Assembly (NCBI GenBank): GCA_963701855.1
Contig: CAVPBK010000006.1
Location: forward strand, 32,001-96,000
Length of the DNA stretch: 64,000 nt
DNA from: Nitrospirota bacterium
GTDB taxonomy: Bacteria; Nitrospirota; Nitrospiria; Nitrospirales; Nitrospiraceae
Direction: 5' to 3'
Within the stretch, counting starts at the first letter, position 1. Each line of letters opens with the position of its first letter. The position numbers were made by a program, and so were the translations under genes. Positions 527-53,375 of the stretch are shown piece after piece. The notes beneath the pieces were generated by a model, which ran no database searches, was not told the DNA's origin, and worked only from the letters and a program-made list of their open reading frames with translations.

Positions 527-718
527 CAGGATGCTGAAAAAGTCCGCCAGCAGCGTTCTCGACTCATCGAAATCCTCAACGGGGACCCGGCCGCCTCACC
601 GACTCGGCGGCGCGCACAGACGTGGTGCTCCTTATTCGTCGCACCGTGCGCCCCAGAGGGTACGCCTCCGGTTTCGACTCGCCTGCGGCCTTGCTGAACG
701 GACTTTTTGAGCATCCTG
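527..718. repeat. Palindromic MITE-like element, family A copy A1, with an internal cargo module
   Basis: Ends CAGGATGCTGAAAAAGTCCG / CGGACTTTTTGAGCATCCTG (20-bp inverted repeat, 1 mismatch); core CTCAACG..GGTACGCCTC..GCGGCCTTGCTG; starts 2 nt after the thiD stop. Confidence 0.9.
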
Positions 719-738
719 TTTGACTGAAAGACCATCCC

Positions 739-1521
739 ATGGAAGAAGCGCTGTTATTTCACGATCACCATGGCCACGGCATCGCTGCGATTCTGAGCAC
801 ACCTGACGGACCAACGACGCGTCTCGCCGTGTTGTGCCATGGATTTCTCTCCAGCAAAAATAGCACGACCAATAAGACCTTAACCCGCCTCCTCAATGCA
901 CAGGGCCTGGCGACCTTTCGGTTCGACTTTTTCGGTCAAGGAGACAGTGACGGACCGTTTGAAGAAATCACGACAACCCTGGCCGTGCAGCAAACCCAAT
1001 CCGTACTGGATCTGGTGGCCGCCAGAGGCTATGACCGAATCGGAATCGTCGGCTCAAGCTTTGGAGGGCTCGTCGCCATTCTCACGGCAGCCCAACGTCG
1101 TGATATCGCCTGTTTGGCTCTCAAATGTCCTGTCGTGGACTTTGCAGAAGAGCTTCGCTTAACTTTCGAACCAGAAGAGTTGGCGCGGTGGCAAGCCACG
1201 GACACAATTCAGAACATTATGGGAGGGCCGGATCGGGTCCGTTTGCGGTATGCCTTTTACGAAGACTGCCTCAGACAGATCGCCTATGAGCCGGCTGAAC
1301 GAATCACCATACCCACACTGATTGTCCAGGGTGAAAAGGATGAATGTGTCCCTCTTCATCAAAGCCGTCGATTACATGATGCGCTGAGAGGACCAAAGAG
1401 GTTGGATCTTCTGCCAGGCGCCGATCACCAATTCACTCGTGGGGAAGATTTTCACCAGATGACGACATCGATCAGTGATTGGCTCTTCACCCATCTCACA
1501 GCAAAACCTAGCGGCGACTGA
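739..1521 (+). CDS. Alpha/beta-fold hydrolase
   Basis: CHGF oxyanion motif, GSSFGG nucleophile elbow, Asp (GEKDE) and His (GADH); stop codon lies inside repeat A2. Confidence 0.88.
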   Translation: MEEALLFHDHHGHGIAAILSTPDGPTTRLAVLCHGFLSSKNSTTNKTLTRLLNAQGLATFRFDFFGQGDSDGPFEEITTTLAVQQTQSVLDLVAARGYDRIGIVGSSFGGLVAILTAAQRRDIACLALKCPVVDFAEELRLTFEPEELARWQATDTIQNIMGGPDRVRLRYAFYEDCLRQIAYEPAERITIPTLIVQGEKDECVPLHQSRRLHDALRGPKRLDLLPGADHQFTRGEDFHQMTTSISDWLFTHLTAKPSGD

Positions 1522-1634
1522 AACTGCCTTCCAACTTCGTTCTCAGTCGTGCGTCTCCTTGAGACGTACCCCAAGGGTACGCCTCAGTCGCCTCACTCCC
1601 TGCGGCCTTGCTGGAAGGCAGTTTGAGCCGCCGC
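1511..1634. repeat. Family A copy A2 (short form)
   Basis: Ends GCGGCGACTGAAACTGCCTTCCA / TGGAAGGCAGTTTGAGCCGCCGC; core GACGTACCCCAAGGGTACGCCTC..CTGCGGCCTTGCTG. Confidence 0.85.
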
Positions 1635-1639
1635 TTTGC

Positions 1640-1805
1640 CCACACCCAGCCTCGGCGCCGAGACGCGCCTTTCTCCATACGGCCTTCTCGCATCGCTCTC
1701 AAGAGCCGTGAGAGGTAAAACGTGTGACTGCCGAATGCTCTTTCTCCGAAACGTTTCACGATTCACGTCTTACGGATCGCTGAACGGTCTTGTTGAGCAT
1801 CCTGC
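1640..1805. repeat. Partial family A element A3 (left end missing)
   Basis: GCGCCGAGACGCGCCTTT module matches the reverse complement of about 7095-7150; right end TTGAGCATCCTGC; the right part resembles 53290-53375. Confidence 0.7.
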
Positions 1806-2007
1806 CGTACCCTACTCCTCTCATAATTCTGATCACCTGCAGTTTCCTCACATTCGAACTTTTCAGGATGCGAGTCTGTTTCCCGCTCACCGTTGCACGC
1901 TATTATGAGGTATTCGGCGAAGGAGAAAAAATTGATATTTTCCTGGCGCAACAGGCACCTCCGAGACACAATGCAACGGAGCCACAGACAACTGAGTTCT
2001 ATAAGAC

Positions 2008-3033
2008 TTGCCACGAATGATTCCCGCGACAAACATCGTGCCCCCCCGGCTCCAGCTTGCAGCCCTTGCGGCAATACTCTGCCAGAGCCTGCATCCTGTA
2101 GCGATGTCCACAATCGTCTCAGCGGCAGAACAAGAGCCGCCATCCCGTCATAGCTTGATTCACCGTTCAGCTGCTGAATCTGCCGCTCCACCTGCCACGA
2201 CTCATGGAACCATACTTCAGCCATCCAGCACTGAGTCCACTCACATCACGAGCCCGATCGAACCGCACCAGCCATCGATATCGGTATCACCAGTACCTGT
2301 CCCAGCGCCACATCATCGGACATTGACCAAGCGTCCGGCCATTGCCACGATAACCGCTCCTGCGATTTCATCCCAGACTCCCCCTGCAGCATCGGTATCA
2401 AGCATCGCAGATGGAAAGGCCACACAAGCGACAGTCGATACCGCCAAGAGCGCAACCCCCACGGCAACGGCGCCCATTATAAAGGCAACGGCTGCGACTC
2501 TTCTTGGAACAGCCCCGGCTGCCTCTGCTACGGTGGCTCCGACCGGTTCCTCTCCGCTGGCAGGAGCTACAGGCGTTCATTCTGCAGCCTCAGCGGGTAG
2601 CGGCTCAACTCCTATGTCTGGCGGTTCGAGATCGGCAGCGAACGTGCTCAAGAACTCTGCGATCACGCGCCTGTTGCAACCCGCGACTCCTGTTGTCACA
2701 GCAGCTCCGCCATCGACTCCACCCTCACCTCCGCCTTCGACTCCGCCGTCAACCCCACCACCATCTCCGCCTCCTGCTAGCCCATCGACAGGGAACGTGA
2801 CACTTACATGGTCGGCGAATGTAGAGCCTGATCTGGCCGGTTACAAAATTTACGTCGGTACGAATTCCGGCATGTACAGTTTCCCTGGATCTCCCTTCGT
2901 GACAGGAAAAGTCACGAGCTATACGATCTCCAATCTCCCCAAGGGCCAGACCTACTACTTTGCGATCTCTGCTTACGATAGTGCCGGCAACGAAAGTGTG
3001 ATGTCGTCCGAAGTCAGCAAGAGCCTCTACTAG
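2008..3033 (+). CDS. Pro/Ser/Thr/Ala-rich protein with C-terminal fibronectin type III domain
   Basis: Low-complexity linker, then VTLTW..DLAGYKIY..YYFAISAYDSAGNES (FN3 pattern); start uncertain. Confidence 0.8.
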   Translation: MPRMIPATNIVPPRLQLAALAAILCQSLHPVAMSTIVSAAEQEPPSRHSLIHRSAAESAAPPATTHGTILQPSSTESTHITSPIEPHQPSISVSPVPVPAPHHRTLTKRPAIATITAPAISSQTPPAASVSSIADGKATQATVDTAKSATPTATAPIIKATAATLLGTAPAASATVAPTGSSPLAGATGVHSAASAGSGSTPMSGGSRSAANVLKNSAITRLLQPATPVVTAAPPSTPPSPPPSTPPSTPPPSPPPASPSTGNVTLTWSANVEPDLAGYKIYVGTNSGMYSFPGSPFVTGKVTSYTISNLPKGQTYYFAISAYDSAGNESVMSSEVSKSLY

Positions 3034-3220
3034 CGGCTGCTGAAAAATGGAGCAGGGGAGCGGCCAGGTGCCCTTCTTGCTCGCAGAACGCGCACGATGA
3101 AACTGTGCTCGTTCGATGCGCGCAGTAAAGGGCAGCCTTGGCCACTCCCCTTAAGAGAGGGTATAAGGAATCGGACGGCCCTCCCTGTGGCCTCGTTGGA
3201 AACCAGTTTGAGCAGCCGCT
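3032..3220. repeat. Family A shell A4 containing a family B hairpin (3054-3151)
   Basis: Ends AGCGGCTGCTGAAA / TTTGAGCAGCCGCT; left end overlaps the TAG of the FN3 gene; internal TTGCTCGCAGAACGCGCACGAT..GTTCGATGCGCGCAGT core. Confidence 0.85.
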
Positions 3221-3255
3221 TATGAATACGAAAACGATGAAGCGTGCTCTCTGTA

Positions 3256-3424
3256 GCAGGATGCTCAAATAGACGATCCAACAAGGCCGCAGGGAGTCCG
3301 GCGACTGAGGCGTACATTTCTCACCCACCCACCCCGAGCTGCCAAGACAGCTCTTTCACCAGTGGGTACGTCGCAAGGAGACGGGCGACTGAGAACAAAA
3401 CTGGAATACAGCTAGAGCCGCCGC
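3256..3424. repeat. Family A copy A5 (opposite orientation, mismatched ends, loop insertion)
   Basis: GCAGGATGCTCAAA..CAAGGCCGCAG..GAGGCGTAC[insert]GGGTACGTCG..GAGAAC..GAGCCGCCGC. Confidence 0.75.
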
Positions 3425-3470
3425 TTTGATGAGGCAAGTTGTATGGGGTCATTGTGCTAAAGAAATCCCG

Positions 3471-3597
3471 GCAGGATGCTCAAAACGGTCATCCAGCAAG
3501 GCCGCAGGAGAGAAATAACCGGAGGCGTACCCTCTGGGGTACGTTGAGGATTATTTCGACCCGAGAACGACGCTGGGGACTGTTTTCAGCATCCTGC
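3471..3597. repeat. Family A copy A6 (short form)
   Basis: GCAGGATGCTCAAAACGGTC / GACTGTTTTCAGCATCCTGC; core GAGGCGTACCCTCTGGGGTACGTTGAGG; abuts the stop of the FGE-domain gene. Confidence 0.9.
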
Positions 3598-4466
3598 TAA
3601 GATTTGGCGCAGCGGAAGCCCGTATAGCTATTGCGCGTCTCGGGTGAGAGCTTGAAGCGGCCATAGGTGAGGAGATACTTCGGCAGGTCTGACCAAGATC
3701 CACCGCGCAGCACTTTGAATTGCCCCTGTTCTGGTCCCTGCGGATTTTGTTCCGGCGAGACTTCGTAATAGTTCGCGGCATACCAATCCTGCACCCACTC
3801 CCAGACATTCCCAGCCATTTGATAGAGCCCGTATGGACTCTTGCCTTGCTCATAGGACTGCACGGGCATCAAGACCTGGCTGTAGCTGAAGCGCGCACCC
3901 AACCCGAAATTCGCCAGATCTTTACTTGGAACCCAATTGCCCCAGGGATATAATTTTCCGTCTGTTCCCCTGGCCGACTTCTCCCATTCCGCTTCGGTGG
4001 GAAGCCGCTTTCCCATCCACTGACAATAGGCATCAGCGTCCGACCAGTCCACTCCAATCACCGGCCGATCACTATGCTGCGACAGATCGACCATGTCCCA
4101 TTGCCAGGGCGCAGGGCGGTTTGTCGCAGTAAAAAACGAAGCGTACTGTCCTGTCGTGACCTCGTAGAGATCGATAAAGAAAGCAGGCAGCCAGATCTGA
4201 TGTTTTGGCCGCTCATCCTCTAAGGCCTGCATCCCATCCATTCCCATTCTAAACTCACCGGCTTGAATCTCGGCCATAGGAGTTCCAGCAACAGCCATCG
4301 TGTCCAAAGCCTTGGACTTCCTGAGCCGGTCAAGCTGAGCGGTTGCATTAGTATCGGGCACAAGAAGGAGAAGGATAGTCAAAACGATCAATGCTCTCAC
4401 GCACCCAACCCCGGCGGCTATTCCACCCTCCCGCCCTGAGGCTACCAAGATAGCCTCTTTGCCCAT
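3597..4466 (-). CDS. Formylglycine-generating enzyme (FGE-sulfatase/SUMF1) domain protein
   Basis: RLPTEAEWEKSARG, MAGNVWEW, RGGSW and GFRCA motifs; the ORF-track extension to 4775 is repeat-derived. Confidence 0.9.
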   Translation of the reverse strand: MGKEAILVASGREGGIAAGVGCVRALIVLTILLLLVPDTNATAQLDRLRKSKALDTMAVAGTPMAEIQAGEFRMGMDGMQALEDERPKHQIWLPAFFIDLYEVTTGQYASFFTATNRPAPWQWDMVDLSQHSDRPVIGVDWSDADAYCQWMGKRLPTEAEWEKSARGTDGKLYPWGNWVPSKDLANFGLGARFSYSQVLMPVQSYEQGKSPYGLYQMAGNVWEWVQDWYAANYYEVSPEQNPQGPEQGQFKVLRGGSWSDLPKYLLTYGRFKLSPETRNSYTGFRCAKS

Positions 4467-4524
4467 GGGCGCGCCTTTCACCTTACAAGGCCGCAGGAAG
4501 TTTGAACGCCGAGGTGTACGCGGA

Positions 4525-4735
4525 AGGATGCTCAAAAAGGTCATCCAACGTGGCCGCAGGCGAGAGAAAACAGGAAACGTAATATTCTCACCCGCCCGCT
4601 CCGAGCCGGACGAACAGCTCTTATCCGATGGGCTATGTTGAGAATTTTGTCGAGCCGAAAACCAACCCTGGGTCAGGCGCGTCCCGGCGCGCCGGGGTTG
4701 GGCGGGTGAGAAGATGACCTTTTTCAGCATCCTGC
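4525..4735. repeat. Family A copy A7 with two internal modules
   Basis: AGGATGCTCAAAAAGGTCATC / GATGACCTTTTTCAGCATCCT; contains GGCGCGTCCCGGCGCGCCGGGGTTGGGCGGGTGAGAA, also seen in A9; a core fragment precedes it at about 4487-4522. Confidence 0.85.
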
Positions 4736-4737
4736 TG

Positions 4738-5397
4738 TCAATGGAGGATTCCACTGACCACCCAATGCCGATCATCGATGACGTCGATGAGCAGGCGGCT
4801 GAGGTTCAGTTCGGCTAACTGCGCCGCTACTTCATCTTCGGTGAACGCCGCCAACAGCGAATTATAAAAATCACGCCGCAACACCTCTGGCTCCTTTGCC
4901 GCGTAACGATCCACGATGGCCTGCGCCTCTTCGGGCGAATCCGGTCTGAGCAGATCCATCACGAGCACAGAGGAGCCTGGCTTCACCAGTTGCCGCAGCC
5001 GATACCAGAACTGCAAGGGATTGGGCACATGATGCAACAGGCTGTTGGAGACTGCGGCATCGGCCGGTTCAACCAGCGAAACCGCTTGAAAACGCTCGCA
5101 GCGAAAGGTAATCCGGTCGGCCAGACCTGCCAGCGTCACAGACGCGCCAGCGAGGCCAATCATCGGCTCCGACGCATCGACCGCGGTGATGCGACAAGCG
5201 GGATAGGCCTGAGCGAAGCGGATAGGAATATCGCCGGGACCACAACCCAGGTCGAGCAGATGCCCCTCGGAAAAATCGGGAAAGTATTCACGGAAACGAT
5301 CGACGAAACCTTGATTCTCTTTTTCAAAATCCGCCTTTGCATAGACAAGCGCCTGCTCAGGATCGTCCATGAGTTCTGGTTCAAGGGTACGGTTCAT
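4738..5397 (-). CDS. Class I SAM-dependent methyltransferase
   Basis: LDLGCGPG motif I, SNSLLHH. Confidence 0.88.
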   Translation of the reverse strand: MNRTLEPELMDDPEQALVYAKADFEKENQGFVDRFREYFPDFSEGHLLDLGCGPGDIPIRFAQAYPACRITAVDASEPMIGLAGASVTLAGLADRITFRCERFQAVSLVEPADAAVSNSLLHHVPNPLQFWYRLRQLVKPGSSVLVMDLLRPDSPEEAQAIVDRYAAKEPEVLRRDFYNSLLAAFTEDEVAAQLAELNLSRLLIDVIDDRHWVVSGILH

Positions 5398-5414
5398 GGC
5401 TTTCCTCGCGTAGA

Positions 5415-5470
5415 CTGAGGCTGAGGTTAAGGCTAAGTTCGATCAAACGTGACCTCAGCCTTGACCTTAG
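5415..5470. repeat. Inverted arrays of degenerate hexamers (AGGYTR)n / (YARCCT)n
   Basis: CTGAGGCTGAGGTTAAGGCTAAG ... TGACCTCAGCCTTGACCTTAG; same design at 37112-37197. Confidence 0.7.
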
Positions 5471-5955
5471 TCTGCTTCTACTATGACTTCGTCGCCCGGT
5501 CTCACCACGCCCTCACGCAGCACTCTCGCATAGAGCCGACTCCATCCTGGGTTCAATTTCTGAGACACGCGTTTGTAGTCTCTGTCCCGGAACCACTGTG
5601 CATTTTTATCGCAGGGACTCGTATAACTCATGATCTCTATCTGCACCTCTGGCCCGACTTGGAGCCTGTCCCCTGGTTTCAGCTTTTCCCACTCAAGCCC
5701 GGCGAGCGTCAGGTTCTCTCCGGAAAAGCCGGCCTCGATTGAATGGCCCTCGTCCTGCAACCGCTCGATCAGCTCTTGCGAATACAGACAAACCGCACGA
5801 TCGGGTCCGCCATGGAATTTGAGGTTCTGTTGCCGGTCGCCCTCGACTCCGGTTTTTGAGATAACGGCCTCCAGCACCGGATGTTTCGGCACACCTCCAT
5901 CCGACACATTAATCTGGTACACGTGGGAATAGGGTGGCCATCCATTCTCAGTCAT
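5467..5955 (-). CDS. MOSC domain-containing protein
   Basis: GGVPK, HGGPDRAVCLY, GENL, PC and GWSRLYARVL motifs (YiiM-like). Confidence 0.88.
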   Translation of the reverse strand: MTENGWPPYSHVYQINVSDGGVPKHPVLEAVISKTGVEGDRQQNLKFHGGPDRAVCLYSQELIERLQDEGHSIEAGFSGENLTLAGLEWEKLKPGDRLQVGPEVQIEIMSYTSPCDKNAQWFRDRDYKRVSQKLNPGWSRLYARVLREGVVRPGDEVIVEAD

Positions 5956-6839
5956 CAGCTCACTCCTTCACAGGATTCCGCCACTAGCAACTCCAACGCC
6001 ACCCAGCCCTCTTGTTCACGCCGCTGAACCAACAGGGCGCCGACCTTGGAGAATGCCTCGATAATCTCTTGTTCTTGATCAAGCAGAATGCCGGACAGTA
6101 AGAGCTTCGCACCGTGGCTTACGTACTGCGCCAATTCATCGCGCAGCAGGAGCAGCGTCTGGCGATCGAGATTGGCGAGCACCAGATCTGGCCGCAGCTC
6201 GCCATGCGGGTCAACATCTTCCAGAGTTCCGCACCGGAATTCGAGATGGCCCCCAAACCCGTTCTCTGTGGCATAGTCTCGCGCGCAATTTACCGCAACA
6301 GGATCGCACTCCACTCCGATGGCGGAGGCTGCCCCGAGCCGCAGCGCAGCCATCGCCAGAATGCCGCTCCCCGCCCCCACATCCAGCACGGATTCACCAC
6401 CGTGAACGAGGTCTTCAAGCCATTCCAACAACATCCGTGTCGTCGCATGATGACCCGTGCCGAATGCCTGCTTCGGATCGAGTACGATCTCAATGTCCCG
6501 TGTCTGCAACGCCACCGGTTCCCAACTCGGCCTGACCACAATCCGCTTACCGATCCGAATCGGTCTGACCGACTGAGCCCACTGCCGATTCCAATCCTGA
6601 TCGGGCAATTCCTCAACACGGATATCGCTCTCGGACGAAACGTCCGGATCGAGTTCCTGCAGAGTCCTGCTCAGGCGAGCACGTGCCTCCATGCTCCACT
6701 GTGGTTTCGGCCAATAGAGATGGACCACCCCGTCCTCATCCCATCCGCCTTGAATCGAGGGATCAGACAGCATGCCGAGCAACTCTGCCGCATCGACCAC
6801 GGTCCGAATCTGGACATCGATCCACCCCTCTGAGTTCAT
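5955..6839 (-). CDS. prmA: Ribosomal protein L11 methyltransferase
   Basis: DWNRQW, PSW, DPKQAFGTGHHATT, LDVGAGSGILA, LLLSGIL. Confidence 0.92.
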   Translation of the reverse strand: MNSEGWIDVQIRTVVDAAELLGMLSDPSIQGGWDEDGVVHLYWPKPQWSMEARARLSRTLQELDPDVSSESDIRVEELPDQDWNRQWAQSVRPIRIGKRIVVRPSWEPVALQTRDIEIVLDPKQAFGTGHHATTRMLLEWLEDLVHGGESVLDVGAGSGILAMAALRLGAASAIGVECDPVAVNCARDYATENGFGGHLEFRCGTLEDVDPHGELRPDLVLANLDRQTLLLLRDELAQYVSHGAKLLLSGILLDQEQEIIEAFSKVGALLVQRREQEGWVALELLVAESCEGVS

Positions 6840-6924
6840 AATGGCCTAGGAGCCTGCGGAAAACTCTCAAGGCACGCCGAAGTTTCATTTTTCAGCACGC
6901 TTGGAATACCGATGGTGCACCACA

Positions 6925-7182
6925 CAGGATGCTCAAAATGGCCGCCAGCGAAGCCGCAACGAGCAAAAAGGCGAAGGAGGTACGTACCGCACTTCGTGTG
7001 GGCCGTTCGCCCGTCGAATGAATCTTGGCGAACGGAAAAGCCCCTCCAGTAATTCCGACATCCGAGAGGCTCTGTTCGGTATGTTGAGCTTCTGAGCGAT
7101 GCGAGAACAAAGCATGGGAAAAGGCGCGTCTCGGCGCGCTGGGGTTGGGCGGGTGAGAAGGGTGACTTTTTCAGCATCCTGC
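6925..7182. repeat. Family A copy A9 (long form, two internal modules)
   Basis: CAGGATGCTCAAAA / TTTTTCAGCATCCTGC followed by TAG; a large insert between CGTAC and GTATGTTGAG. Confidence 0.85.
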
Positions 7183-7223
7183 TAGAGTTGACGCACTCTT
7201 CCCCATCCAGTAAGGTCGGCGCT

Positions 7224-9083
7224 ATGCTCCAAGACCAACCTGTCACGCCCATGACGAAAGCCCATACACTGACACGCCTGGTGGCGAAACTCGACCGTGT
7301 AATCGCCTTGGCCACCGCATCGAGTTCCGCACTCACCCGTTGGCGTCTCATCCTGTTCATCGTCGGAGCGATCTGCACGGTAGCCCTGTACAAAATGGGA
7401 TGGTATCAAGCCGGCAATGGGGCGCTTCTCATCTTCGTCGCCCTGTTTTTAACTGTGGCCGCCTATCATAACAGGCTCGAAAGTCGCTTGCACCGCCTTC
7501 GCCTCTGGAAGCAGATCAAGCTCGTGCACTTGGCACGTCTCCGGCTGGATTGGCCTCATATTCCCACTCGTCCGTCGAGCGCTCCCGAGCACCATCCCTA
7601 TGCCAAAGACTTGGACCTGGTCGGCCCCCACTCGCTCCTTCATCTGCTCGACACCACGGTCTCCTCACACGGACAGGCGCGGCTGGCGTCGTGGCTGCTT
7701 GAGCAACCGCCGAAACCGGACCAGTGGCTCAAGCGTCGCCGCCTGGTGCAGGAACTCATTCCGCGATCGCTGTTTCGGGATCGGCTGGGGCTTGAAGCTC
7801 AGCTCATCGGCGAACAGGAAATCAACGGGCGACGACTGGAAGCCGTTCTTCAGCATACAGTTGGATTCCCTCGCCTCACGACGATCTTAGCGATTCAAAC
7901 CCTGCTGGCCGCCGCCACCATCGGACTCGGCTTGAGTGCGCTACTTGACTGGCTGCCGAATTATTGGATGTGGTCCTTTGCACCCTATGCCTTGATCTAT
8001 TTCTGGACCGATCAGGGCGAAGAGCTATTGGAACATGCGGTGGGCGTGCACTTCGAACTGGAGAAGCTGGGAGCCGTACTGGGGTTTGTCGAACGACATG
8101 CACGGCCTAGCCACACGACGCTCACCGACTTGTGGGCACCGCTGCTTACGCCGGGGATGAATCCGCCTAAGCTCGTCCGGCAAGCGGCCCGCACCCTGCA
8201 TGCGATCAGCGTCAAAGCCCATCCGCTCATCCATCTGGCCGCCAACGCGTTCTGCCCATGGGATCTGTGGTTCACCTACCGGCTCCAACAGATTCAGGCT
8301 CAGGTAGCCGACCACCTGCCGACCTGGCTGGATCGACTGGCCGAGGTCGAGGCCGCCTCGGCACTCGCCACCTTTGCCGCGCTCCATCCATCGTATCGCT
8401 GGCCGGATCCATTTACCGCCGATCCGCAGCGTAACGGAGCGCAGGCCAGGCTGTCGGCCAAAAGCCTCGCCCATCCGCTGATTCCTGAGACTCACCGGGT
8501 CTCAAACGATCTTGCCCTCGAAACAGGGGGAACCGTACTCCTGATGACCGGGTCCAACATGTCGGGGAAGAGCACCTTCTTACGAACCCTGGGCATCAAT
8601 CTCTGCCTCGCTCAGGCAGGCGCCCCGGTCTGCGCCGATCTTTTCGAATGGACCTGGGCGCGCCTCGCCACCTGTATCCGCGTGGACGACTCGCTCGAAG
8701 CGGGCTTGTCTTTTTTCTATGCCGAGGTGAAACGCCTCAAGAGCCTGCTCGACGCGACGGCCGATCGATCCAGCGTACCGGTGGTATTCCTGATCGACGA
8801 GATATTCAAAGGCACCAACAATCGTGAACGGTTGATTGGGAGCCGTTCCTTCATTACCGCTCTCTCGCAAGGCAATGGATTTGGCTTAGTGACCACCCAT
8901 GATCTGGAATTGACCGATCTCGACAAGACGGTGCCAGGATTGCGGAACGCCCACTTTCAGGAAACCGTGGCAGCCGGCGCGCTGCAATTCGACTACAAGC
9001 TCAGACCCGGTCCCTGCGCCACAACCAACGCTCTGCGAATTATGGAACTGGAAGGGTTGCCGGTGCCTTCGCCTCAGGCCTGA
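7224..9083 (+). CDS. Membrane-anchored MutS-related ATPase (MutS domain V only)
   Basis: N-terminal hydrophobic helices; TGSNMSGKSTFLR Walker A, SFFYAEV, IDEIFKGTN, TTHDLEL. Confidence 0.88.
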   Translation: MLQDQPVTPMTKAHTLTRLVAKLDRVIALATASSSALTRWRLILFIVGAICTVALYKMGWYQAGNGALLIFVALFLTVAAYHNRLESRLHRLRLWKQIKLVHLARLRLDWPHIPTRPSSAPEHHPYAKDLDLVGPHSLLHLLDTTVSSHGQARLASWLLEQPPKPDQWLKRRRLVQELIPRSLFRDRLGLEAQLIGEQEINGRRLEAVLQHTVGFPRLTTILAIQTLLAAATIGLGLSALLDWLPNYWMWSFAPYALIYFWTDQGEELLEHAVGVHFELEKLGAVLGFVERHARPSHTTLTDLWAPLLTPGMNPPKLVRQAARTLHAISVKAHPLIHLAANAFCPWDLWFTYRLQQIQAQVADHLPTWLDRLAEVEAASALATFAALHPSYRWPDPFTADPQRNGAQARLSAKSLAHPLIPETHRVSNDLALETGGTVLLMTGSNMSGKSTFLRTLGINLCLAQAGAPVCADLFEWTWARLATCIRVDDSLEAGLSFFYAEVKRLKSLLDATADRSSVPVVFLIDEIFKGTNNRERLIGSRSFITALSQGNGFGLVTTHDLELTDLDKTVPGLRNAHFQETVAAGALQFDYKLRPGPCATTNALRIMELEGLPVPSPQA

Positions 9084-25897: not shown

Positions 25898-25993
25898 GCG
25901 AGGTGGCTGGTGTGGTCTCCACTGCGCGCATCGAGCGACCACCGCTTTATCGTGGGGGCTCTGCGAGCAAAGAGACCATACCAGCCACCTCGC
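25898..25993. repeat. Family B hairpin element (divergent, reverse orientation)
   Basis: Stem GCGAGGTGGCTGGTGTGGTCTC / GAGACCATACCAGCCACCTCGC; core ACTGCGCGCATCGAGC..TCTGCGAGCAA. Confidence 0.8.
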
Positions 25994-26070: not shown

Positions 26071-26168
26071 AGGGGAGTGGGCAGATTGTCCTTCACTGCG
26101 CGCATTGGACGAGCACAGTTTCATCGTGCGCGTTCTGCGAGCAAGAAGGACGGCCTGCCCACTCCCCT
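26071..26168. repeat. Family B hairpin element (reverse orientation)
   Basis: Stem AGGGGAGTGGGCAGATTGTCCTTC / GAAGGACGGCCTGCCCACTCCCCT with the conserved core. Confidence 0.88.
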
Positions 26169-26184: not shown

Positions 26185-26217
26185 ACGGCGAGGCGTGGGA
26201 TACCCACGCCTCGCCGT
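26185..26217. terminator. Perfect 15-bp hairpin, possible terminator for the minus-strand gene ending at 26464
   Basis: ACGGCGAGGCGTGGG-ATA-CCCACGCCTCGCCGT; only a weak U tract. Confidence 0.5.
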
Positions 26218-26261: not shown

Positions 26262-26385
26262 CAGGGTGCTGAAAAAGTCCGCCAGCGGCGTTCTCGCATC
26301 GTTCAGACCCTCAACGTACCTCAGAGGGTACGCCTCGGCCCTTCACTCGTTGCAGCCTTGCTGGACGGCCATTTTGAGCGCCCTG
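26262..26385. repeat. Family A copy A11 (short form)
   Basis: CAGGGTGCTGAAAA / TTTTGAGCGCCCTG; internal sequence nearly identical to 47134-47257. Confidence 0.9.
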
Positions 26386-26463
26386 CAAAAACGCTCTTCT
26401 GCTTTGCTAACCATGCAGGCTATTGAAGTTCTGACATCCGTAATTGTTTTTCCCCGCTGCCTG

Positions 26464-32679: not shown

Positions 32680-32720
32680 GGCACGTGATCGTACCACGCT
32701 GCCAGAGGAAGCTCTACCGG

Positions 32721-34404: not shown

Positions 34405-35295
34405 GTGACGCGACAGATGACATCACCGCTCGTTGTGCTGGGATCTGGCTACACAGGACGTGTGTTGCACAGAACGGGAACCTCGCAGGGGTGGACTGTC
34501 CATGCCACCAGCAGGAATCCCATGAGCAATCTCGCAGACATTCCTTCGGAACAGCGCCTCGAGTTCGACCTAGAACAGCCTTCGACCTGGCCGAATATTC
34601 CTGCGGGCGCTAATCTCATCTGGTGTTTTCCCGCCACGCCGATTTCCCAGGTCCAGGCCTTCGCACGCACACTCGACGCGCCTCCTCGGCGCATTGTCAT
34701 CTTAGGGAGCACGTCCGCCTACGAGGCGTCCGATCATTCCGTCGAATATCCTCCATCTTGGATTGACGAATCAGCCCCGATCGATCTGACCAAGTCGCGT
34801 GTCCAGGGCGAGGAATATCTGCGCAAACACCATGGCGCCATCGTTCTCCGCGTGGCAGGCATCTACGGACCTGGGCGGAACCCGCTGGATTGGATCAGGC
34901 AAGGCCGCATCGGCCCATCGCGCAAGTGTGTGAACCTGATTCACGTGGAAGACTTGGCGGCAATTTGTCTGGCAGCAATCGAGAAAGGGAAACCCGGCGA
35001 GGCCTACAACGTCAGCGATGGCACGCCTTATCTTTGGAGTGATATCTGCGCAACTGCGCAGCAGCGGTGGAGTGTGGCCGTGACAGCGGCAAACGAAGAC
35101 CGCTCATCGGGAAAACGAATCAGCAACGCCAAGCTTCGGTCTGAGCTAGGCTACACTCTAAAACACCCAGACTTATACGAGGCGCTAGCAATGATCGAAT
35201 CAGGGAACGGGGTAGAAGCGCAGGATGGTCAAAATGGCTTCCAGCAAGGCCCGAGGCGAGACGGAACCGGAGGCGTACCCTCGGGAGAGAACTGA
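34405..35295 (+). CDS. NAD-dependent epimerase/dehydratase-like (atypical SDR) protein
   Basis: GSGYTG, LRVAGIYGPGR, IHVEDLA, YNVSD, KRISNAK; C-terminal tail read from repeat A12. Confidence 0.85.
   Translation: MTRQMTSPLVVLGSGYTGRVLHRTGTSQGWTVHATSRNPMSNLADIPSEQRLEFDLEQPSTWPNIPAGANLIWCFPATPISQVQAFARTLDAPPRRIVILGSTSAYEASDHSVEYPPSWIDESAPIDLTKSRVQGEEYLRKHHGAIVLRVAGIYGPGRNPLDWIRQGRIGPSRKCVNLIHVEDLAAICLAAIEKGKPGEAYNVSDGTPYLWSDICATAQQRWSVAVTAANEDRSSGKRISNAKLRSELGYTLKHPDLYEALAMIESGNGVEAQDGQNGFQQGPRRDGTGGVPSGEN
35221..35284. repeat. Half copy of family A (A12), inside the 3' end of a CDS
   Basis: CAGGATGGTCAAAATGGCTTCCAGCAAGGCCCGAGGCGAGACGGAACCGGAGGCGTACCCTCGG. Confidence 0.8.
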
Positions 35296-35351
35296 AAGTA
35301 GATATTATTCCCGCCAATACTAATATGGCACCAGCCCTCGTTTTCTCTTTG

Positions 35352-35474
35352 CGGATGGTCAAACTGGTTCTCCAACTAGGCCGCAGACGAGAACAAACCG
35401 GAGACGTACCCTCTGGGGTACGTTGAGGATTTGGGTGAGTTGAGAACGACGTTGGAAGCCAGTTTCACCGTCCG
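35352..35474. repeat. Family A copy A13 (short form)
   Basis: CGGATGGTCAAACTGGTTCTCCAAC / GTTGGAAGCCAGTTTCACCGTCCG; core GACGTACCCTCTGGGGTACGTTGAGG; ends just before the stop at 35476. Confidence 0.88.
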
Positions 35475-37111: not shown

Positions 37112-37197
37112 CTAGGCTAAGGTCGAGGCCAAGGCTGAGTGAAGATCTGACGTTCCTTATCTATCTTAGCCTCAACCTTAGCCTGAACCTCAACCTT
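37112..37197. repeat. Inverted arrays of degenerate hexamers
   Basis: CTAGGCTAAGGTCGAGGCCAAGGCTGAG ... CTTAGCCTCAACCTTAGCCTGAACCTCAACCTT. Confidence 0.7.
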
Positions 37198-38614: not shown

Positions 38615-39831
38615 ATGATGAAAGCCATTGCCATTCGCTCAGTGCGTGTCATCGACGGGACCGGTCGGACGATCGAGCGAGCCACGGTGATCGTTCGCGG
38701 AACCAAGATTGCCGCGGTCGGATCGGATCGAGACCTCTCCATCCCACATGGTGCGACCAAGATCGATGGCCGAGGACTCACGCTATTACCGGGCTTGATC
38801 GACTGTCATGTGCATCTCTGCCTCGGAGCTGAACCGGATGTCGTCGAGGCGATCGCCAAAGAGACGCCCACACTGACATTACTGAAATCAAGCCAGGCTG
38901 CGCGACAGACCCTGGAGGCAGGCTTCACCACTGTGCGTGACGTGGGGTCGCGAGACCACTCCATCTTTACATTGCAACGGGCTATCGATACAGGTCTCGT
39001 TCCCGGACCTCGCATTGTCGCGAGCAGGCCTGGCGATTTGCATGATCGGCGGCCACGCCCGGTTTATCGGTCAGGAAGTGGAAGGAGACAGAACAAGTCC
39101 GTTCCGTCGTGCGCGCGCAAATCTCCGCCGGGGCCACCGTCATTAAAGTCATTGCATCGGGTGGTGTCCTCACGCCCGGTACCTCGCCGGACCAGGCGCA
39201 AATGACCGTGGAGGAACTCCAGGCCGCCGTGGATGAAGCGCAGCAAGCCGGGAGGAAAGTCGCAGCCCATGCCCATGGATCGTCGGGGATGAAGAATGCT
39301 ATCCGCGCCGGAGTCCATTCGATCGAGCATGCCACGCTCATGGACACAGAAGCCGCGGCCATGATGAAACGGCAGGGTGTCTTCATGGTGCCGACACTCT
39401 CTGCGCTCGCTACCACTGCCGCCTGCCGACTCGGATGCGGCATTCCCGAAAGCGCCTTGGACAAAGCCAAATCCATGACGAAGCGCCATCAAGTAAGCTT
39501 CAAGAACGCTCTGCGGGACGGTATCCAGATTGCGATGGGCACGGATGCGGGGACGCCCTTTAACTTTCACGGCGAGAACGCTCAGGAGCTCGAGCGGATG
39601 GTCGCCTTCGGGATGAGCCCGATGCAGGCGATTCTCGCCTCGACCTCCGCTGCCGCACAGTTGATCGGGATTCAGGACCAGGTGGGAACGATCGAGAAGG
39701 GGAAACTGGCGGATCTCCTCTTATTCAAAGGCAATCCGCTTCGTCGCATCGACCTGCTACGCGATCGCAGCAGGATTATGGGCGTGATGCAGGCGGGCAA
39801 GTTTGTCGCAGGGCCTCTTTCAAGGACGTGA
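38615..39831 (+). CDS. Metal-dependent amidohydrolase (Xaa-Pro dipeptidase-like), two +1 frameshifts near 39021 and 39087
   Basis: PGLIDCHVH, GFTTVRDVG, GGH (middle frame), VAAHAHG, SIEHA, MGTDAG, GKLADL spread over three frames. Confidence 0.85.
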
Positions 39832-40298: not shown

Positions 40299-40580
40299 AT
40301 GGGCCAGCAGCGACGGAGTTTCACGCCAGAGTTTAAGCAGGAAGCCGTGGACTTGTGCCGACGCAGTGGGAAGAGCGAGTGCCAGGTGGCGCGGGAGTTG
40401 GGCATTCCCCAACCGACGTTCAATCGATGGATGCGGCAAGCGGCGGGGGCGCCCCAAGGATCCCACAGCTTTCTGGCGACCGAGGAACTCAAGGTCTTGC
40501 GGCGAGAAGTCGAGCAACTCCGCATGGAGCGCGACATCCTAAAAAAAGCCGTGGCCTTCTTTGCCAAGGAGTCGGGATGA
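40299..40580 (+). CDS. IS3 transposase OrfA (HTH)
   Basis: FTPEFKQEAV..VARELGI..ERDILKKA; A7G slippery site at 40541-40548. Confidence 0.92.
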   Translation: MGQQRRSFTPEFKQEAVDLCRRSGKSECQVARELGIPQPTFNRWMRQAAGAPQGSHSFLATEELKVLRREVEQLRMERDILKKAVAFFAKESG

Positions 40581-41467
40581 GGTATCGCTTCATCCAGGCG
40601 GAGAAGGCCGCGTATCCCGTGGAGGTCTTGTGTCGCGTCCTCAGCGTGGCCCGGAGCGGCTATTACGCCTGGTGCCGTCGTCCGCTCGGTGCACGCGCGC
40701 AGCAGAATCAATGGCTGGTCACGCATATTCGGACCTGTTACCAGGCGTCGCGCGGCCGCTATGGGAGTCCGCGGATTCATCAGGATCTGCGCGCCCACGG
40801 GTTGCGGGTCGGCCGCCATCGCGTGGCTCGGCTCATGCGGCTGCATGGGCTCCGCAGTGTTCGACGGCGGAGCTGGCGCCCACCGGCCAGCGCGCTTCCC
40901 GCGGTGGTGCGGGCGAACGTCTTGCGACGAGCCTTCACCGCCACACGGCCGAATGAGAAGTGGGCCGCCGACATCACCTACGTGCCCACACGCCAGGGTT
41001 GGCTCTATCTCGCCGTGGTGATCGATTTGTACTCGCGGCGGGTGGTCGGCTGGGCCATGGATGCACAGCAGACGATCGCGCTGACGCTGACGGCTTTAGA
41101 GATGGCGCTGCACCAACGGCCTGTGTTGGCCGGGCTCCTGCACCATTCGGATCGAGGCAGCCAGTATGGCGCGGTGGCCTATCAGCACCGGTTAGTCAGC
41201 TGCGGAATCCGGGGCTCGATGAGCCGCCCCGGCAATTGCTGGGACAATGCCGTCGTGGAGAGCTTCTTTGCTACGTTGAAGACCGAGCTGATTCACCGAC
41301 GGCAGTATGCGACTCGCCAAGAAGCCCGCGCCGACATCTTTGAGTACGTAGAGGGCTTCTATAATCGAAGCCGACGCCATTCGCGTTTGGGGTATCGGAG
41401 CCCGATGGACTTTGAGCATCAATACCCATACCATCAATCGGGGGCGTCTACCGTATGGACGCCGTGA
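40577..41467 (+). CDS. IS3 transposase OrfB (DDE integrase core)
   Basis: WAADITY, DLYSRRVVGW, HSDRGSQY, DNAVVESFFATLKTE; -1 frame relative to OrfA. Confidence 0.93.
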   Translation: MRYRFIQAEKAAYPVEVLCRVLSVARSGYYAWCRRPLGARAQQNQWLVTHIRTCYQASRGRYGSPRIHQDLRAHGLRVGRHRVARLMRLHGLRSVRRRSWRPPASALPAVVRANVLRRAFTATRPNEKWAADITYVPTRQGWLYLAVVIDLYSRRVVGWAMDAQQTIALTLTALEMALHQRPVLAGLLHHSDRGSQYGAVAYQHRLVSCGIRGSMSRPGNCWDNAVVESFFATLKTELIHRRQYATRQEARADIFEYVEGFYNRSRRHSRLGYRSPMDFEHQYPYHQSGASTVWTP

Positions 41468-47133: not shown

Positions 47134-47257
47134 CGGCAGCTGAAAAAGTCCGCCAGCAGCGTTCTCGCATCGTTCAGACCCTCAACGTACCCCAGAGGGT
47201 ACGCCTTCGGCCCTTCACTCGCTGCGGCCTTGCTGAACAGTCTTTTTGAGCAGCCTG
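47134..47257. repeat. Family A copy A14, overlapping the 3' end of the CCA-enzyme gene
   Basis: GCTGAAAAAGTCCGCCAGC..CTCAACGTACCCCAGAGGGTACGCC..TTTTTGAGCAGCCTG. Confidence 0.9.
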
Positions 47258-48564
47258 TGGGCTAGGGCGCGTTCCTCCGCCTCGGTTGTGACCATTCCAT
47301 CAATGCGCGCATCCAACAGTTTTCCCAGGATGGTCTTGTACTCTGGCCCAGGCTCTAAACCCATCGCCTGAAGATCCCGCCCTGTCAGTAGCGTCTTCAT
47401 TGTCCTGTTCTTCATATAGGCCACAAGTTGTCGTTTCAGCAGACTCACGCGCACGCCGTGCTGCGCGCTTACCTCCTTCACTAGAAACAGCACAAGGGCC
47501 TCGTCCGAGAAACCTGCCAAGAGGCGATACACCTGCGATGGCCGTACTGTCTCTTTATTGGTAAGACGCTTCAGAGCGCGATCAACCCAACGTCCTACTG
47601 CACTCACCTTCTTGGCCTGCTCCCGTGAAAGCGCTAACCGCCGAATCAGCGCGGCCACCACGACCGCGCTGGACTCGTTCGACAACGCCATGAGGCAGAC
47701 GATCGGCCGGTCGATCACAGAAGCCGGGAATCGACGCGCCCACCAGGCGAGCGCCTTGGGAACGGCAGCGACCATTCGCTTCACGTTTTTCGTGTAGCAC
47801 AAACGTCGGTGGAGGAAGCGAAGCAACTTCAACTGCGCAAGCCGCGCAATCACGCACGCCGGATCGCGCTCGGAAAACAGCAACAAGATTTCGTTCTGCA
47901 ATCGAGGACCGGAGAGTTGCCGGATCAGATTCGTGGAGGCCGCTTGCGCGAGCAGGCGCACTGTGGTGCGCTCAAGGCGGAAACCAAACCGTTGTTCAAA
48001 CCGGATCGCTCTAAAGATGCGCGTGGGATCGTCTTGAAAACTGCCCGCATGCAGTACACGGATCGCGCGCGCCTGAAGATCGCGCCGCCCTCCATAGGGA
48101 TCGAGCAAACGACCGAACTGTCGCGGATTCAGTTGTACCGCTATGGCATTGATCGTGAAGTCCCGCCGGGAAAGATCCTCTTCGATCGACGCCGGCTGAA
48201 CCGTCGGCAGAACAGCGGGCTGCGCGTAGGACTCTCGTCTGGTCGTCGCAATATCCATCTTGAGTCCGTCCGGGAATGTGAGCCGCGCCGTCGAAAACCG
48301 TTCAAACACCGCCAGCCCTGCCCCATACCGGTCGGCCACCAACTGCGCGAAGGCGACCCCATCCCCCTCTACCGTGAAATCGAGATCCCAGATCTCTCGC
48401 TTCAGCAAGAGATCGCGGACGACTCCGCCGACAAGGTACAAGCGCTCCCCACTCTCATCCGCAAGGTTCCCAAGCTCACGAAGCAGAGCAAGTCGCTCCC
48501 GAGGGAGACGACGCAACAGATCGTTTTGAGTCATACGATGCTTCACGGCACGCCATTGTAGCAA
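47215..48564 (-). CDS. CCA tRNA nucleotidyltransferase / poly(A) polymerase family
   Basis: YLVGGVVRDLL, DLDF, DLSRRDFTINA, DDPTRIFRAIRF. Confidence 0.92.
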   Translation of the reverse strand: MLQWRAVKHRMTQNDLLRRLPRERLALLRELGNLADESGERLYLVGGVVRDLLLKREIWDLDFTVEGDGVAFAQLVADRYGAGLAVFERFSTARLTFPDGLKMDIATTRRESYAQPAVLPTVQPASIEEDLSRRDFTINAIAVQLNPRQFGRLLDPYGGRRDLQARAIRVLHAGSFQDDPTRIFRAIRFEQRFGFRLERTTVRLLAQAASTNLIRQLSGPRLQNEILLLFSERDPACVIARLAQLKLLRFLHRRLCYTKNVKRMVAAVPKALAWWARRFPASVIDRPIVCLMALSNESSAVVVAALIRRLALSREQAKKVSAVGRWVDRALKRLTNKETVRPSQVYRLLAGFSDEALVLFLVKEVSAQHGVRVSLLKRQLVAYMKNRTMKTLLTGRDLQAMGLEPGPEYKTILGKLLDARIDGMVTTEAEERALAHRLLKKTVQQGRSE

Positions 48565-50687: not shown

Positions 50688-50700
50688 ACGCTGTGAATCG

Positions 50701-52290
50701 CTACCGTCGCATCCATGCAAACAATTTCATCAGCAAGGCCTTCGTGCGTGGGGTAAAGTGCGCCTTGCGCCAAAGATTCACGACCTTCTTATTCACCTCG
50801 GCTTGCGTCGGATAGGGATGAATCGTACCGGCGATCGTCTTCGCTCCGGCGCCGGCTTTCATCGCAACTGAGAACTCACCGATCATCTCACCGGCGTGGA
50901 CCGCCACAATAGTCGCGCCGAGAATCTTGTCGGAGCCTTTCTGGATGTGCACTCGCGCGAACCCTTCGTCTTCGCCGTCGAGAATCGCGCGATCGACCTC
51001 ATCGAGCTTATAGGTGTAAGTTTCAACTTCGATGCCTTTCTCCTTTGCTTCCTTCTCATACATCCCAACATGCGCGACTTCCGGCACCGTGAAGGTACAC
51101 CAGGGCATGATCAACGATTCGACGCTGGCATAGCCCACGCCGAAAGGATGTGGGAATAGGGCGTTCTGAATGACCAGCTGCGCCATGGCATCGGCCGCAT
51201 GGGTGAATTTGTAGCGTGAACAAATGTCGCCGGCCGCAAAGATCCTGGGGTTCGTCGTCTGCAGCCGCGCATTCACCTTGACCCCGTTCTTGTCGTACTC
51301 AACACCAACCGTTTCCAGCCCGATGCCTTCGACATTCGGGGTACGGCCGACACCGACCAGAATCTCGTCAACCGTCACATCGTACTGCTGGCCATGTGAA
51401 TCGACAGTGAGCCGCTTGCCGGCATCCGTTTTCTGTACCTTTAAATCTTTCCCGCAACAGAGCAGCTTCACTCCGTCGCGCAACATCTGCTGTTCGACAA
51501 TTTCAGCTGCGTCTCGGTCTTCGTTCGGCAGGATGCCGTGTACCGCTTCAATGAGGCAGACCTGGCTCCCAAAGCGTGCAAACGACTGCGCCAACTCGCA
51601 ACCGATGGGACCGGCGCCGATTACCCCGATGCGTTGCGGCAGTTCCGTCAGCGAGAACACCGTTTCATTGGTGAGATAGCCCGCCTCTTTCAATCCGGGC
51701 GTCGGAGGCACCGACGCCCTTGCTCCTGTGCAGACAGCCGCCTTCGCAAAGTTCAGCGTGCGATGGCCGGCCGGCCCTTCAACTTGAATGGTGTCGGGGC
51801 CGGTAAAGCGCCCGCTGCCGATATAGACATCCACACCCAATTTCGTATAGCGATGAACCGAATCGTTGTGACTGATCCGCGCCCGCAGTTTTCTCATGCG
51901 CTCCATCGCTGCTCCAAAGTCGTATTTGACCCCTGGAGGAATATGCAGGCCGAACTCCTCGGCATTCCGTACATCGGCCCAAGCCCTTGCCGCACGTATG
52001 ATGCCTTTCGAGGGCACACAGCCGACATTCAAGCAGTCGCCACCCATCAAATGTTTTTCAATTAAGGCCACTTTGGCCCCCAGACTTGCAGCCACGACCG
52101 CCGTGATCAATCCCGCAGTCCCGGCTCCGACGACCACAATATTGTAGCGACCAGCCGGTTCGGGATTGACCCAGTTCGAAGGATGCACGTTGCTGACGAG
52201 CGTTCGGTTATGCTCATCGTTCGGCAGCATGAGGTTCTCTTCATGCTTATTCATCACAACGTTCCACTCTTCTGCCGGCTGCAAAACCAT
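50701..52290 (-). CDS. Mercuric-reductase-like pyridine nucleotide-disulfide oxidoreductase
   Basis: GAGTAG, GGDCLNVGCVPSK, GAGPIG, IHPYPTQAE; lacks the C-terminal Cys pair of true MerA. Confidence 0.9.
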   Translation of the reverse strand: MVLQPAEEWNVVMNKHEENLMLPNDEHNRTLVSNVHPSNWVNPEPAGRYNIVVVGAGTAGLITAVVAASLGAKVALIEKHLMGGDCLNVGCVPSKGIIRAARAWADVRNAEEFGLHIPPGVKYDFGAAMERMRKLRARISHNDSVHRYTKLGVDVYIGSGRFTGPDTIQVEGPAGHRTLNFAKAAVCTGARASVPPTPGLKEAGYLTNETVFSLTELPQRIGVIGAGPIGCELAQSFARFGSQVCLIEAVHGILPNEDRDAAEIVEQQMLRDGVKLLCCGKDLKVQKTDAGKRLTVDSHGQQYDVTVDEILVGVGRTPNVEGIGLETVGVEYDKNGVKVNARLQTTNPRIFAAGDICSRYKFTHAADAMAQLVIQNALFPHPFGVGYASVESLIMPWCTFTVPEVAHVGMYEKEAKEKGIEVETYTYKLDEVDRAILDGEDEGFARVHIQKGSDKILGATIVAVHAGEMIGEFSVAMKAGAGAKTIAGTIHPYPTQAEVNKKVVNLWRKAHFTPRTKALLMKLFAWMRR

Positions 52291-52356
52291 CGTGTTGCTC
52301 CCTCATTTCGCCTACGCTTCACGTTTCACGCCTCACGTTTTTTATGGCGATTGCGG

Positions 52357-53094
52357 TCACGCCGGTTTCCCAGACCATTTCTTATATAGGCTTGGCACAA
52401 GGGCCAGAAGCCCTAGCAATACAAATGCTCCAATCACTCCAGGGGAAGCAATGTCTTTCAACGAATTGATCGTACCGAGTTGCCGGCCCGCGTAGGCATA
52501 GACGAAGGAACCGGGGATAATCCCGATCGCCGTCGCCGCCACATAGGTGCCGACATTCATGCGAGTCAGGCCGGATACCAGATTCACCACAAAAAACGGA
52601 AAGAGGGGAATCAGCCGGAGGGTCATGAGATAGCTGAACGCATTATTCGCAAAGCCTTGTTGAACCGGACCCAGCCACTTGCCAAACTTCCGTTCCACCC
52701 AATCGCGCAGCAAGTAGCGGGATGCAAGAAACGCGAGCGTCGCGCCTGTCGTCGCCCCTAGGTTTACGAATCGTGTGCCCCACACAAACCCGAAGAGAAA
52801 TCCGCCTGCCAGTGTCAGAATCACGGCGCCGGGAAGCGAAAGCCCCGTCACGGCCACATAAACCAAGACGAACAACGCGGCGGCGACGGCAGCATGTGCT
52901 TCGGTAAACGACAATAGATAATCACGATTCTCTTTGAGCGCATCCAAGGAGAGGAAGCGACCCAGATCGAAGTAGAAAAATGCAGCCACTGCAACTCCGA
53001 TCGCAAGGACCACGGCAATTTTCCCGACACTCAGCCCACTCTTTGCTTCAGAAGATGGGATATCGTTCGTCATGACGGTTTGTCCGCTTATCAT
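52357..53094 (-). CDS. TVP38/TMEM64 (DedA-superfamily) membrane protein
   Basis: SLPGA..LAGGFLFG, GATLAF, LRLIPLFPFFVVN. Confidence 0.9.
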   Translation of the reverse strand: MISGQTVMTNDIPSSEAKSGLSVGKIAVVLAIGVAVAAFFYFDLGRFLSLDALKENRDYLLSFTEAHAAVAAALFVLVYVAVTGLSLPGAVILTLAGGFLFGFVWGTRFVNLGATTGATLAFLASRYLLRDWVERKFGKWLGPVQQGFANNAFSYLMTLRLIPLFPFFVVNLVSGLTRMNVGTYVAATAIGIIPGSFVYAYAGRQLGTINSLKDIASPGVIGAFVLLGLLALVPSLYKKWSGKPA

Positions 53095-53204
53095 GGGGAC
53101 TCCTATTCTGGCTGTCAATGTGGACAAGTACCTCTCAGTCGTCTGAAATCCCGTGGTCTTACAGTGGCCATTCTCTGCCACACACAAGCGCTTAGCTGCT
53201 AGAG

Positions 53205-53375
53205 CAGGATACGGGGAAAGTCGCCCGCAAGAACCGTGAAAGGTCCCTCGGCTTGGCTCAGGACGGTGAGCTGTCGAACCGTAAGACGGAAAAGGTGAGA
53301 GGTAAGACTAGCGAGTGCTCTTCCTCCAAAACGTTTGACGCCTCACGGATCGCTGACAGACTTTTGAGCAGCCTG
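53205..53375. repeat. Composite family A-related element A15
   Basis: Right end CTTTTGAGCAGCCTG followed by CTAG; CACGGATCGCTGA segment shared with about 1770-1785; degenerate left end CAGGATACGGGGAAAGTC. Confidence 0.65.

Follow-up and report, generated by a model that had tools for sequence, protein, structure and literature searches.

A probable IS5-type miniature inverted-repeat transposable element of Nitrospirota with an internal third repeat and a covarying hairpin

Some bacterial transposable elements of the miniature inverted-repeat type (MITEs) share their ends with an insertion sequence (IS), as given in the accessible text of PMC3184786 and PMC2229807 for Nezha with ISNpu3 and for RUP with IS630. 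Long stems are found in the MITE-like repeats bcr1, ERIC and Correia; the available sections report compensatory changes for bcr1 of the Bacillus cereus group (PMC3184786) and RNA-level effects for ERIC and Correia repeats (PMC10969869, PMC2229807). Abundant oriented hairpins with fixed motifs and nested copies are described for REP/REPIN-RAYT and Ssn/SRM in the accessible part of PMC11893778. We analysed a family of palindromic repeats, termed family A, in a stretch of 64,000 nucleotides from a Nitrospirota bacterium (GenBank assembly GCA_963701855.1, contig CAVPBK010000006.1, positions 32,001 to 96,000 of the forward strand), in the following called the window. Family A is very probably an IS5-type MITE. 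The full explanation, a non-autonomous MITE of about 200 nt that was moved by an IS5-type transposase and whose fold is possibly under selection, is considered likely.

With the IS-sharing MITEs, family A has in common terminal repeats equal to those of an autonomous IS, a 4-bp duplication, empty and filled sites, a non-coding sequence and an intergenic position, and with Nezha, according to the accessible description, a partner IS that is present in relatives and not intact in the host. It differs in having three repeats instead of two and exchangeable interior modules; the long stem is formed by one end and an internal copy, and spacer and interior are absent from the IS. The repeats bcr1, ERIC and Correia, in contrast, have TA termini or 5-bp duplications, and their two ends pair with each other, as far as the available descriptions go. 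Unlike the REP/REPIN-RAYT and Ssn/SRM systems in the published parts compared, family A shows no link to Y1 or GIY-YIG genes and possesses a target duplication and IS ends; the SRM motif is different. The preliminary description of the window had likened the layout to ERIC and Rickettsia RPE elements, a likeness that was lost when the available descriptions were compared with the 4-bp YTAR duplication and the stem via an internal copy. In the literature accessible to us, neither this family in Nitrospira nor a three-repeat IS5 MITE was found, and it may be among the entries of the MITE catalogue that supplements bioRxiv 10.1101/2024.01.18.576219. New are the internal third repeat and a hairpin common to several phyla, the element type itself is familiar.

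Family A has the properties of a MITE: about 200 nt in length, non-coding, multicopy, terminal repeats at both ends, a target duplication and IS-shared ends. The complete element is built of an outer third repeat (T3), a spacer, an internal arm with the motif TCAAA, the hairpin interior and an outer arm with the motif TGAAA. The target sites are YTAR sequences, duplicated over 4 bp on insertion, and many of them coincide with stop codons. The flank of the TGAAA arm was CTAG, TTAG or CTAA in 111 of 236 cases, whereas the TCAAA arm adjoined CTAG or TTAG in only 10 of 191. A repeat-like site within 200 nt outward was present at 54 of these 191 TCAAA arms, for 37 of them at 75-79 nt; as controls, such a repeat was seen at 13 of 236 TGAAA arms and at 14 of 300 randomly chosen sites. 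T3, located 75-78 nt outside the TCAAA arm, was retained by 22 of the 98 cores (control side: 0), and the outer flanks of these 22 cores were identical in five and at most one base apart in 14. A 4-bp flank common to the TCAAA and the TGAAA arm was observed in none of the 98 cores and in none of 27 copies from other phyla. The TCAAA arm is an internal repeat and not an element end; the YTAR flank is one-sided because the true other end, T3, lies beyond it.

Orthologous sites in related genomes, a comparison proposed in the preliminary description, revealed empty sites and the 4-bp YTAR duplication outside the outer repeats. Among 29 relatives with the 527 site, one (L046) lacked the element and had a single CTAG, whereas at many filled sites the element closes with spacer, T3 and YTAG. 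The 6850 site was empty in four relatives (L080, L083, L085, L090), and the 53205 site in several (L261, L265, L272), with a three-repeat form flanked by ATAG on both sides in L274. Three-repeat and spacer-deleted forms occurred side by side among the relatives at the 47134 site. Since orthologous sites present three-repeat forms as well as empty sites, the two-arm copies are best read as deletions between two direct repeats.

Sequence comparison established the outer ends as ends of IS5-family insertion sequences of the NF033581 type, which corresponds to the Pfam domains DUF772 and DDE_Tnp_1. This genome has one IS of 1.37 kb with related ends, a CTAG duplication and a transposase with an in-frame TGA. 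This IS, at L005:578-1954 (C15), is IS5/IS1182-like and has perfect ends; several relatives have intact frames of 405 amino acids. Homologues of the IS transposase were detected in 29 of 151 genomes of the family. The IS ends could be resolved in 14 of 30 loci, 13 of these with a YTAR duplication. In L065, L066, L068 and L069 both IS ends were equal to the T3 consensus, and an IS end of L064 was at most two bases from the TGAAA arm. With 283 and 245 bits, L066 and L064 passed the NF033581 (IS5) cut-off of 140 bits; the clade of this genome's own IS copy (L051) was below both the IS5 and the IS1182 cut-offs. An ordinary MITE, with ends identical to the terminal inverted repeats of an IS in this genome, had been named as the outcome that would contradict the preliminary description. 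This is nearly the case: the ends are related here, and the exact match is to the IS of relatives. The copy at C9:407775-407909 of this genome has both outer ends at most one base from its own IS end and an exact CTAG duplication.

Empty sites with a YTAR duplication and outer repeats equal to IS5-family termini identify a DDE-type MITE and not an HUH or REP substrate, contrary to the first proposal that a folded RNA or single-stranded DNA substrate would fit better. An IS5-family DDE transposase would have moved the element in trans, cutting at T3 and at the TGAAA arm. The internal copy would have been left uncut because it carries a C at position 10, where all 28 IS ends examined have a G, and because the TA flank is missing. 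Long arm pairs enclosing open reading frames (ORFs) were considered as an autonomous element and rejected, as ordinary genes lie there between separate copies. A plasmid collection had no match to the L135 copy.

Most insertions are old. Spacer decay is close to neutral in rate, and in many copies a deletion between the two direct repeats has removed the spacer. Between copies, identity was 82 % in the core and 55 % in the spacer (47 % for shuffled spacers), with a correlation of r = -0.12 between the two. At orthologous sites, the spacer side had an identity of 0.77, the most variable codon position 0.75 and the interiors 0.86, a rate comparison that is weakened by its 12 non-independent pairs. 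Standard cores, microsatellite-like interiors and other modules swap between the same arms at orthologous sites; L087 and L090 were 100 % identical on the spacer side and only 78 % identical in the interior. Ectopic recombination among the hundreds of copies may replace the interiors in place, and arm-to-arm copying may mirror new mutations.

In the covarying stem, one true end pairs with the internal copy and not with the opposite end. The preliminary description had claimed self-complementary stems of varying sequence, and this was borne out on 98 distinct cores: the strongest covarying column pairs were on the hairpin diagonal. Over 19 arm pairs, 113 compensatory double changes, 29 non-complementary double changes and 207 single changes were counted. 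Shuffling gave a mean of 20.8 and a maximum of 38 compensatory changes, and a control with the partner arm taken from the nearest interior neighbours gave means of 18-22. For the inner stem, 110 compensatory changes were observed compared with 29.8 in the control. At position 5, the internal and the outer arm agreed in 21 of 22 copies, T3 and the outer arm in 3 of 22; the stem is therefore independent of end-to-end identity. Arm co-change at orthologous sites left 111 mismatches in 78 pairs from six sites against a minimum of 131 after within-site shuffling, and the 111 are inflated by some mispaired rows, because partner arms were picked automatically. The fixed, strand-asymmetric TCAAA/TGAAA mismatch reported at the outset was confirmed: C·C was kept in 88 of 98 cores, four now have a C-G pair and six have other mismatches. 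The strand with the TCAAA arm first was the better fold in 84 of 98 cores as RNA and in 87 of 98 as DNA, and on this strand family A has G·U where other phyla have G-C. If a form is selected, it would most likely be the hairpin of this strand, read by a protein or setting the fate of a transcript.

Several points weigh against the full explanation. Neither hairpin nor spacer was present within the IS in any of the 30 loci, so that simple internal deletion of these IS cannot have given rise to the element, and an intact matching transposase was not found in this genome. T3 or the spacer could be recognised at about 70-76 of the 191 internal arms (49 arms by T3, the spacer profile adding 23-27 of the other 142), the rest being assumed to have decayed. 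Exact duplications are few, 5 of 22 here and 3 of 19 in other phyla, thus there is no sign of recent movement. As the TGAAA arm adjoins stop codons, read-through transcripts mostly carry the strand opposite to the better-folding one. A neutral model of arm-to-arm copying predicted a mismatch loss of 41-82 % compared with the 4 of 98 cores seen, but the model ignores ectopic conversion and two of its three input sets are rough discounts. Selection on the fold of internal copy and outer arm, with the mismatch as part of it, is somewhat favoured, but ectopic conversion could reset the mismatch without selection; we consider such selection about as likely as not.

The same MITE may carry a hairpin without function, with template switching mirroring the arms and ectopic conversion restoring the mismatch and the loop motifs. 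Template switching reportedly creates and maintains hairpins. Interiors are indeed swapped in place and chimeric arms exist, the mismatch was lost together with mirrored arms in the 4 of 98 cores and also in L305 and L271, and a one-base deletion was mirrored in both arms at the 3032 site. However, at the 1510 and 3032 sites the mismatch is retained in copies in which both of its sides show changes specific to the locus, the loop motifs and the G·U/G-C interchange persist across phyla while the stems are rewritten, and simple neutral copying is off by a factor of ten or more. We regard a functionless hairpin as possible but rather unlikely. Hundreds of copies at orthologous sites offer a natural test between selection and template switching or gene conversion for MITE hairpins. 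Repair of extruded hairpins that overlooks C·C was another candidate. MutS recognises C·C poorly, and MutS is present; the candidate was rated low because G·T pairs are also retained.

A use of the hairpin by the host as an RNA element, for 3' end processing, stabilisation or termination, in the manner of Correia and ERIC repeats and with transposition as the means of delivery, appears doubtful. The outer arm adjoins the stop of a long ORF in 69 of 236 cases; for T3 the figure is 5 of 49, for the internal arm 6 of 191. Of the 98 cores, 79 are located shortly downstream of a gene, and copies that are no longer similar to an IS end stay paired; effects of RNase III and RNase E at other MITEs are described in the accessible part of PMC10969869. 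Against a host function, sites are empty in some close relatives, the interiors are interchangeable, and for most upstream genes the strand that tolerates wobble is the antisense one. Promoter and terminator scans of the region 400-7300 placed no site on the copies. The suggested comparison with Rfam (Rfam 15) yielded no match in the window, and seven loci gave just two miRNA matches, both below threshold and located outside the element. RNA runs contained at most 10 % of the query words, and transcription was not observed. A replication-strand bias was not evident on C6 (27 vs 23).

The reading of the preliminary description, a structure-recognised element without fixed terminal repeats that is mobilised by a single-strand nuclease of the HUH or another type (REP/RAYT, IS200/IS605 or Ssn-like), is largely refuted and very improbable. 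The fixed mismatch, the strand asymmetry and the YTAR flank at one arm only speak for it, as does a copy about 150 nt upstream of the small GIY-YIG gene of this genome. Against it, the third repeat accounts for the one-sided flank, 4-bp duplications and IS5 ends are present, none of the four Y1/HUH loci of this genome had a copy within 1.5 kb, copies within this distance occurred at 3 of 30 GIY-YIG loci from the order and at 1 of 20 such loci from five genomes of other phyla, and no gene had a hairpin core on both sides. In REP/REPIN-RAYT or IS200/IS605 systems the hairpins flank a Y1 HUH transposase, and no target duplication is formed; in Ssn/SRM systems they flank small GIY-YIG genes. The upstream copy of the small GIY-YIG gene (L309:1187-1348) has TCAAA in both arms and a microsatellite-like interior; a GIY-YIG link is unsupported, and this lone copy is weak given the copy density.

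As a MITE the element is ordinary, yet it is abundant and rewrites gene ends. The puzzle is why a parasite should retain a third end that is disabled and that pairs, with a fixed mismatch, with a real one, and this in lineages as distant as Nitrospira, NC10 and Acidobacteria. Of 151 genomes of the order, 123 had matches to family A. When species genomes were scanned with a pattern, at least 127 stretches were obtained; 80 listed loci were examined, and among these matches listed 55 were palindromic (32 of the Nitrospira type and 23 of a diverged type), five lacked an arm at a suitable distance, and 20 had matched by chance. Among the matches listed, the diverged type came from records of Deltaproteobacteria, Thermodesulfobacteriota, Desulfovibrionaceae, Binatia, NC10, Sulfotelmatobacter and Omnitrophota, and 13 of its 23 copies had a third repeat (10 at 25-29 nt; control side 0); the Nitrospira type had a third repeat at 75-79 nt in 9 of 32. 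Deltaproteobacteria, Binatia, NC10, Acidobacteria and Omnitrophota thus have the layout of family A, but their spacer measures about 26 nt. Five genomes from other phyla had at least 10-55 matches each, and of 27 other-phylum copies 19 had the third repeat and 26 the mismatch, while an inner duplication was seen in none. In an alignment of 40 sequences, 97 % of the cells were paired, a value reached by none of 500 shuffles and compared with 36-50 % in slid controls, with part of the arm fixed by the search pattern and relatedness not removed. The invariance of TCAAAA/TTTTCA across phyla adds no support, because the search pattern forced both. The NC10 and Acidobacteria genomes G315, G317 and G318 share a 160-nt short-spacer form at up to 92 % identity, which suggests that this form spread horizontally. 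G317 had 680 first-look candidates.

Among the closest known repeats are 24 'predicted short RNA elements' of Geobacter metallireducens, Gmet_R1001-R1024 (PMC2700814, Figure S1). In the accessible part of this source, they are about 113 nt long and intergenic and have a central palindrome printed as GRCGTAGCGCTGCTACGCC. On the reverse strand, the motif order CAAGGC, GAGGCGTA, TACGCCGCA, AACGC is that of the deltaproteobacterial copies, by eye and unscored. The printed alignment differs in lacking the CAGG...TCAAAA/TGAAAA arms, and the text of PMC2700814, as available, mentions neither mobility nor a target duplication or a third repeat. Motif searches of the Geobacter supplements (PMC2700814, PMC2996986) were insensitive due to spaced letters in the PDF files and covered 12 of 15 files for G. 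bemidjiensis. Speculatively, the hairpin of about 125 nt could be an ancient structure under selection of its own, with fixed loop motifs and a C·C that a protein reads, carried across several phyla by at least two MITE families and the Geobacter repeats; in family A an internal uncleavable repeat would compete with T3 for the true end and act as a switch. We hold this for improbable. If true, the switch would govern excision, protect single-stranded or transcribed copies, or drive the exchange of interior modules in place.

All 13 coordinates named in the preliminary description were full or partial copies of family A. The palindrome given there as the unit is real, only it comprises the inner part of about 125 nt of the element of about 200 nt. 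The genome-wide collection of copies, also suggested there, was obtained by a profile search seeded with five window copies: 202 matches, 95 of full length, were found in the 4.3-Mb genome and none in the reversed genome. A scan for the arm motif detected 295 arms in the genome and none in the control. Inverted repeats of the window recovered the arm pairs 527-546/699-718, 1510-1533/1612-1635, 3032-3045/3207-3220, 4525-4545/4713-4733 and 3463-3490/3578-3605.

Two copies in the window are complete three-repeat elements. The copy at 6850..7181 on the plus strand lies between CTAG at 6846-6849 and 7182-7185 and consists of T3 at 6850, the spacer, the TCAAA arm at 6925, two nested modules and the TGAAA arm ending at 7181; the ortholog in L080 is empty with a single CTAG. 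The copy at 26262..26463 on the minus strand has T3 at 26463, the internal arm at 26385 and the outer TGAAA arm at 26262, with an exact CTAA duplication at 26258-26261 and 26464-26467. The copy at 527..718 (minus strand), directly after the thiD stop codon, is a hairpin part with a module nested at its tip; spacer and T3, kept in many relatives, are lost, and the site is empty in L046. Comparison of inverted repeats and orthologs revealed at 1510..1634 (minus strand) a hairpin with strongly changed yet complementary arms. It was probably brought in by recombination from a neighbouring site, because it closely resembles the copy of L087 at the 3032 site. Adjacent, at 1636..1804 (minus strand), ortholog comparison indicated modules and the TCAAA arm of an older resident element. 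The copy at 3032..3220 (minus strand), at the stop codon of a gene with an fn3 domain, has the arms with a different interior module, and a partial copy at 3257..3400 (plus strand) has the TCAAA arm and an interior with a nested module, the outer arm being absent. A standard hairpin core is located at 3472..3596 (plus strand), its TGAAA arm adjoining the stop of an FGE-sulfatase gene, and a hairpin with two nested modules at 4524..4734 (plus strand).

A half copy at 35221..35284 (plus strand) is within the 3' end of an epimerase-like ORF (34405-35295, plus strand), which receives its last residues and stop codon from the element copy. A hairpin core with changed complementary arms follows at 35351..35474 (plus strand). 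The hairpin core at 47134..47257 (minus strand) has its spacer deleted, and L287, L288, L303 and L306 have all three repeats at this position; the ORF of a poly(A) polymerase-family protein (47215-48564, minus strand) has its last residues and stop codon supplied by the element copy. The degenerate copy at 53205..53375 (minus strand), with the TCAAA arm adjoining CTAG, is most likely a spacer deletion, since L274 keeps the three-repeat form at this site.

A second MITE family, about 188 nt long, has terminal repeats of its own, is flanked by YTAR and shares its central hairpin motif with family A. It is represented in the window at 27536-27678 and in this genome at C4:72551, C12:82001 and other positions, with 54 matches, 23 of them longer than 150 nt. 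In five relatives (L082, L084, L088, L094, L095) this second family fills the 6850 site of family A. Further intergenic palindromes are located at 5423-5470, 25898-25993, 26071-26168, 26185-26217 and 37114-37184, and modules similar to these recur elsewhere next to or within family A arms. Among the other genes of the window, the ORF at 40355-41467 has rve and HTH_21 domains and is by domain content an IS3-type transposase, an amidohydrolase is split across two overlapping frames (38615-39831), and an Lhr helicase is split across two ORFs (28281-32697).

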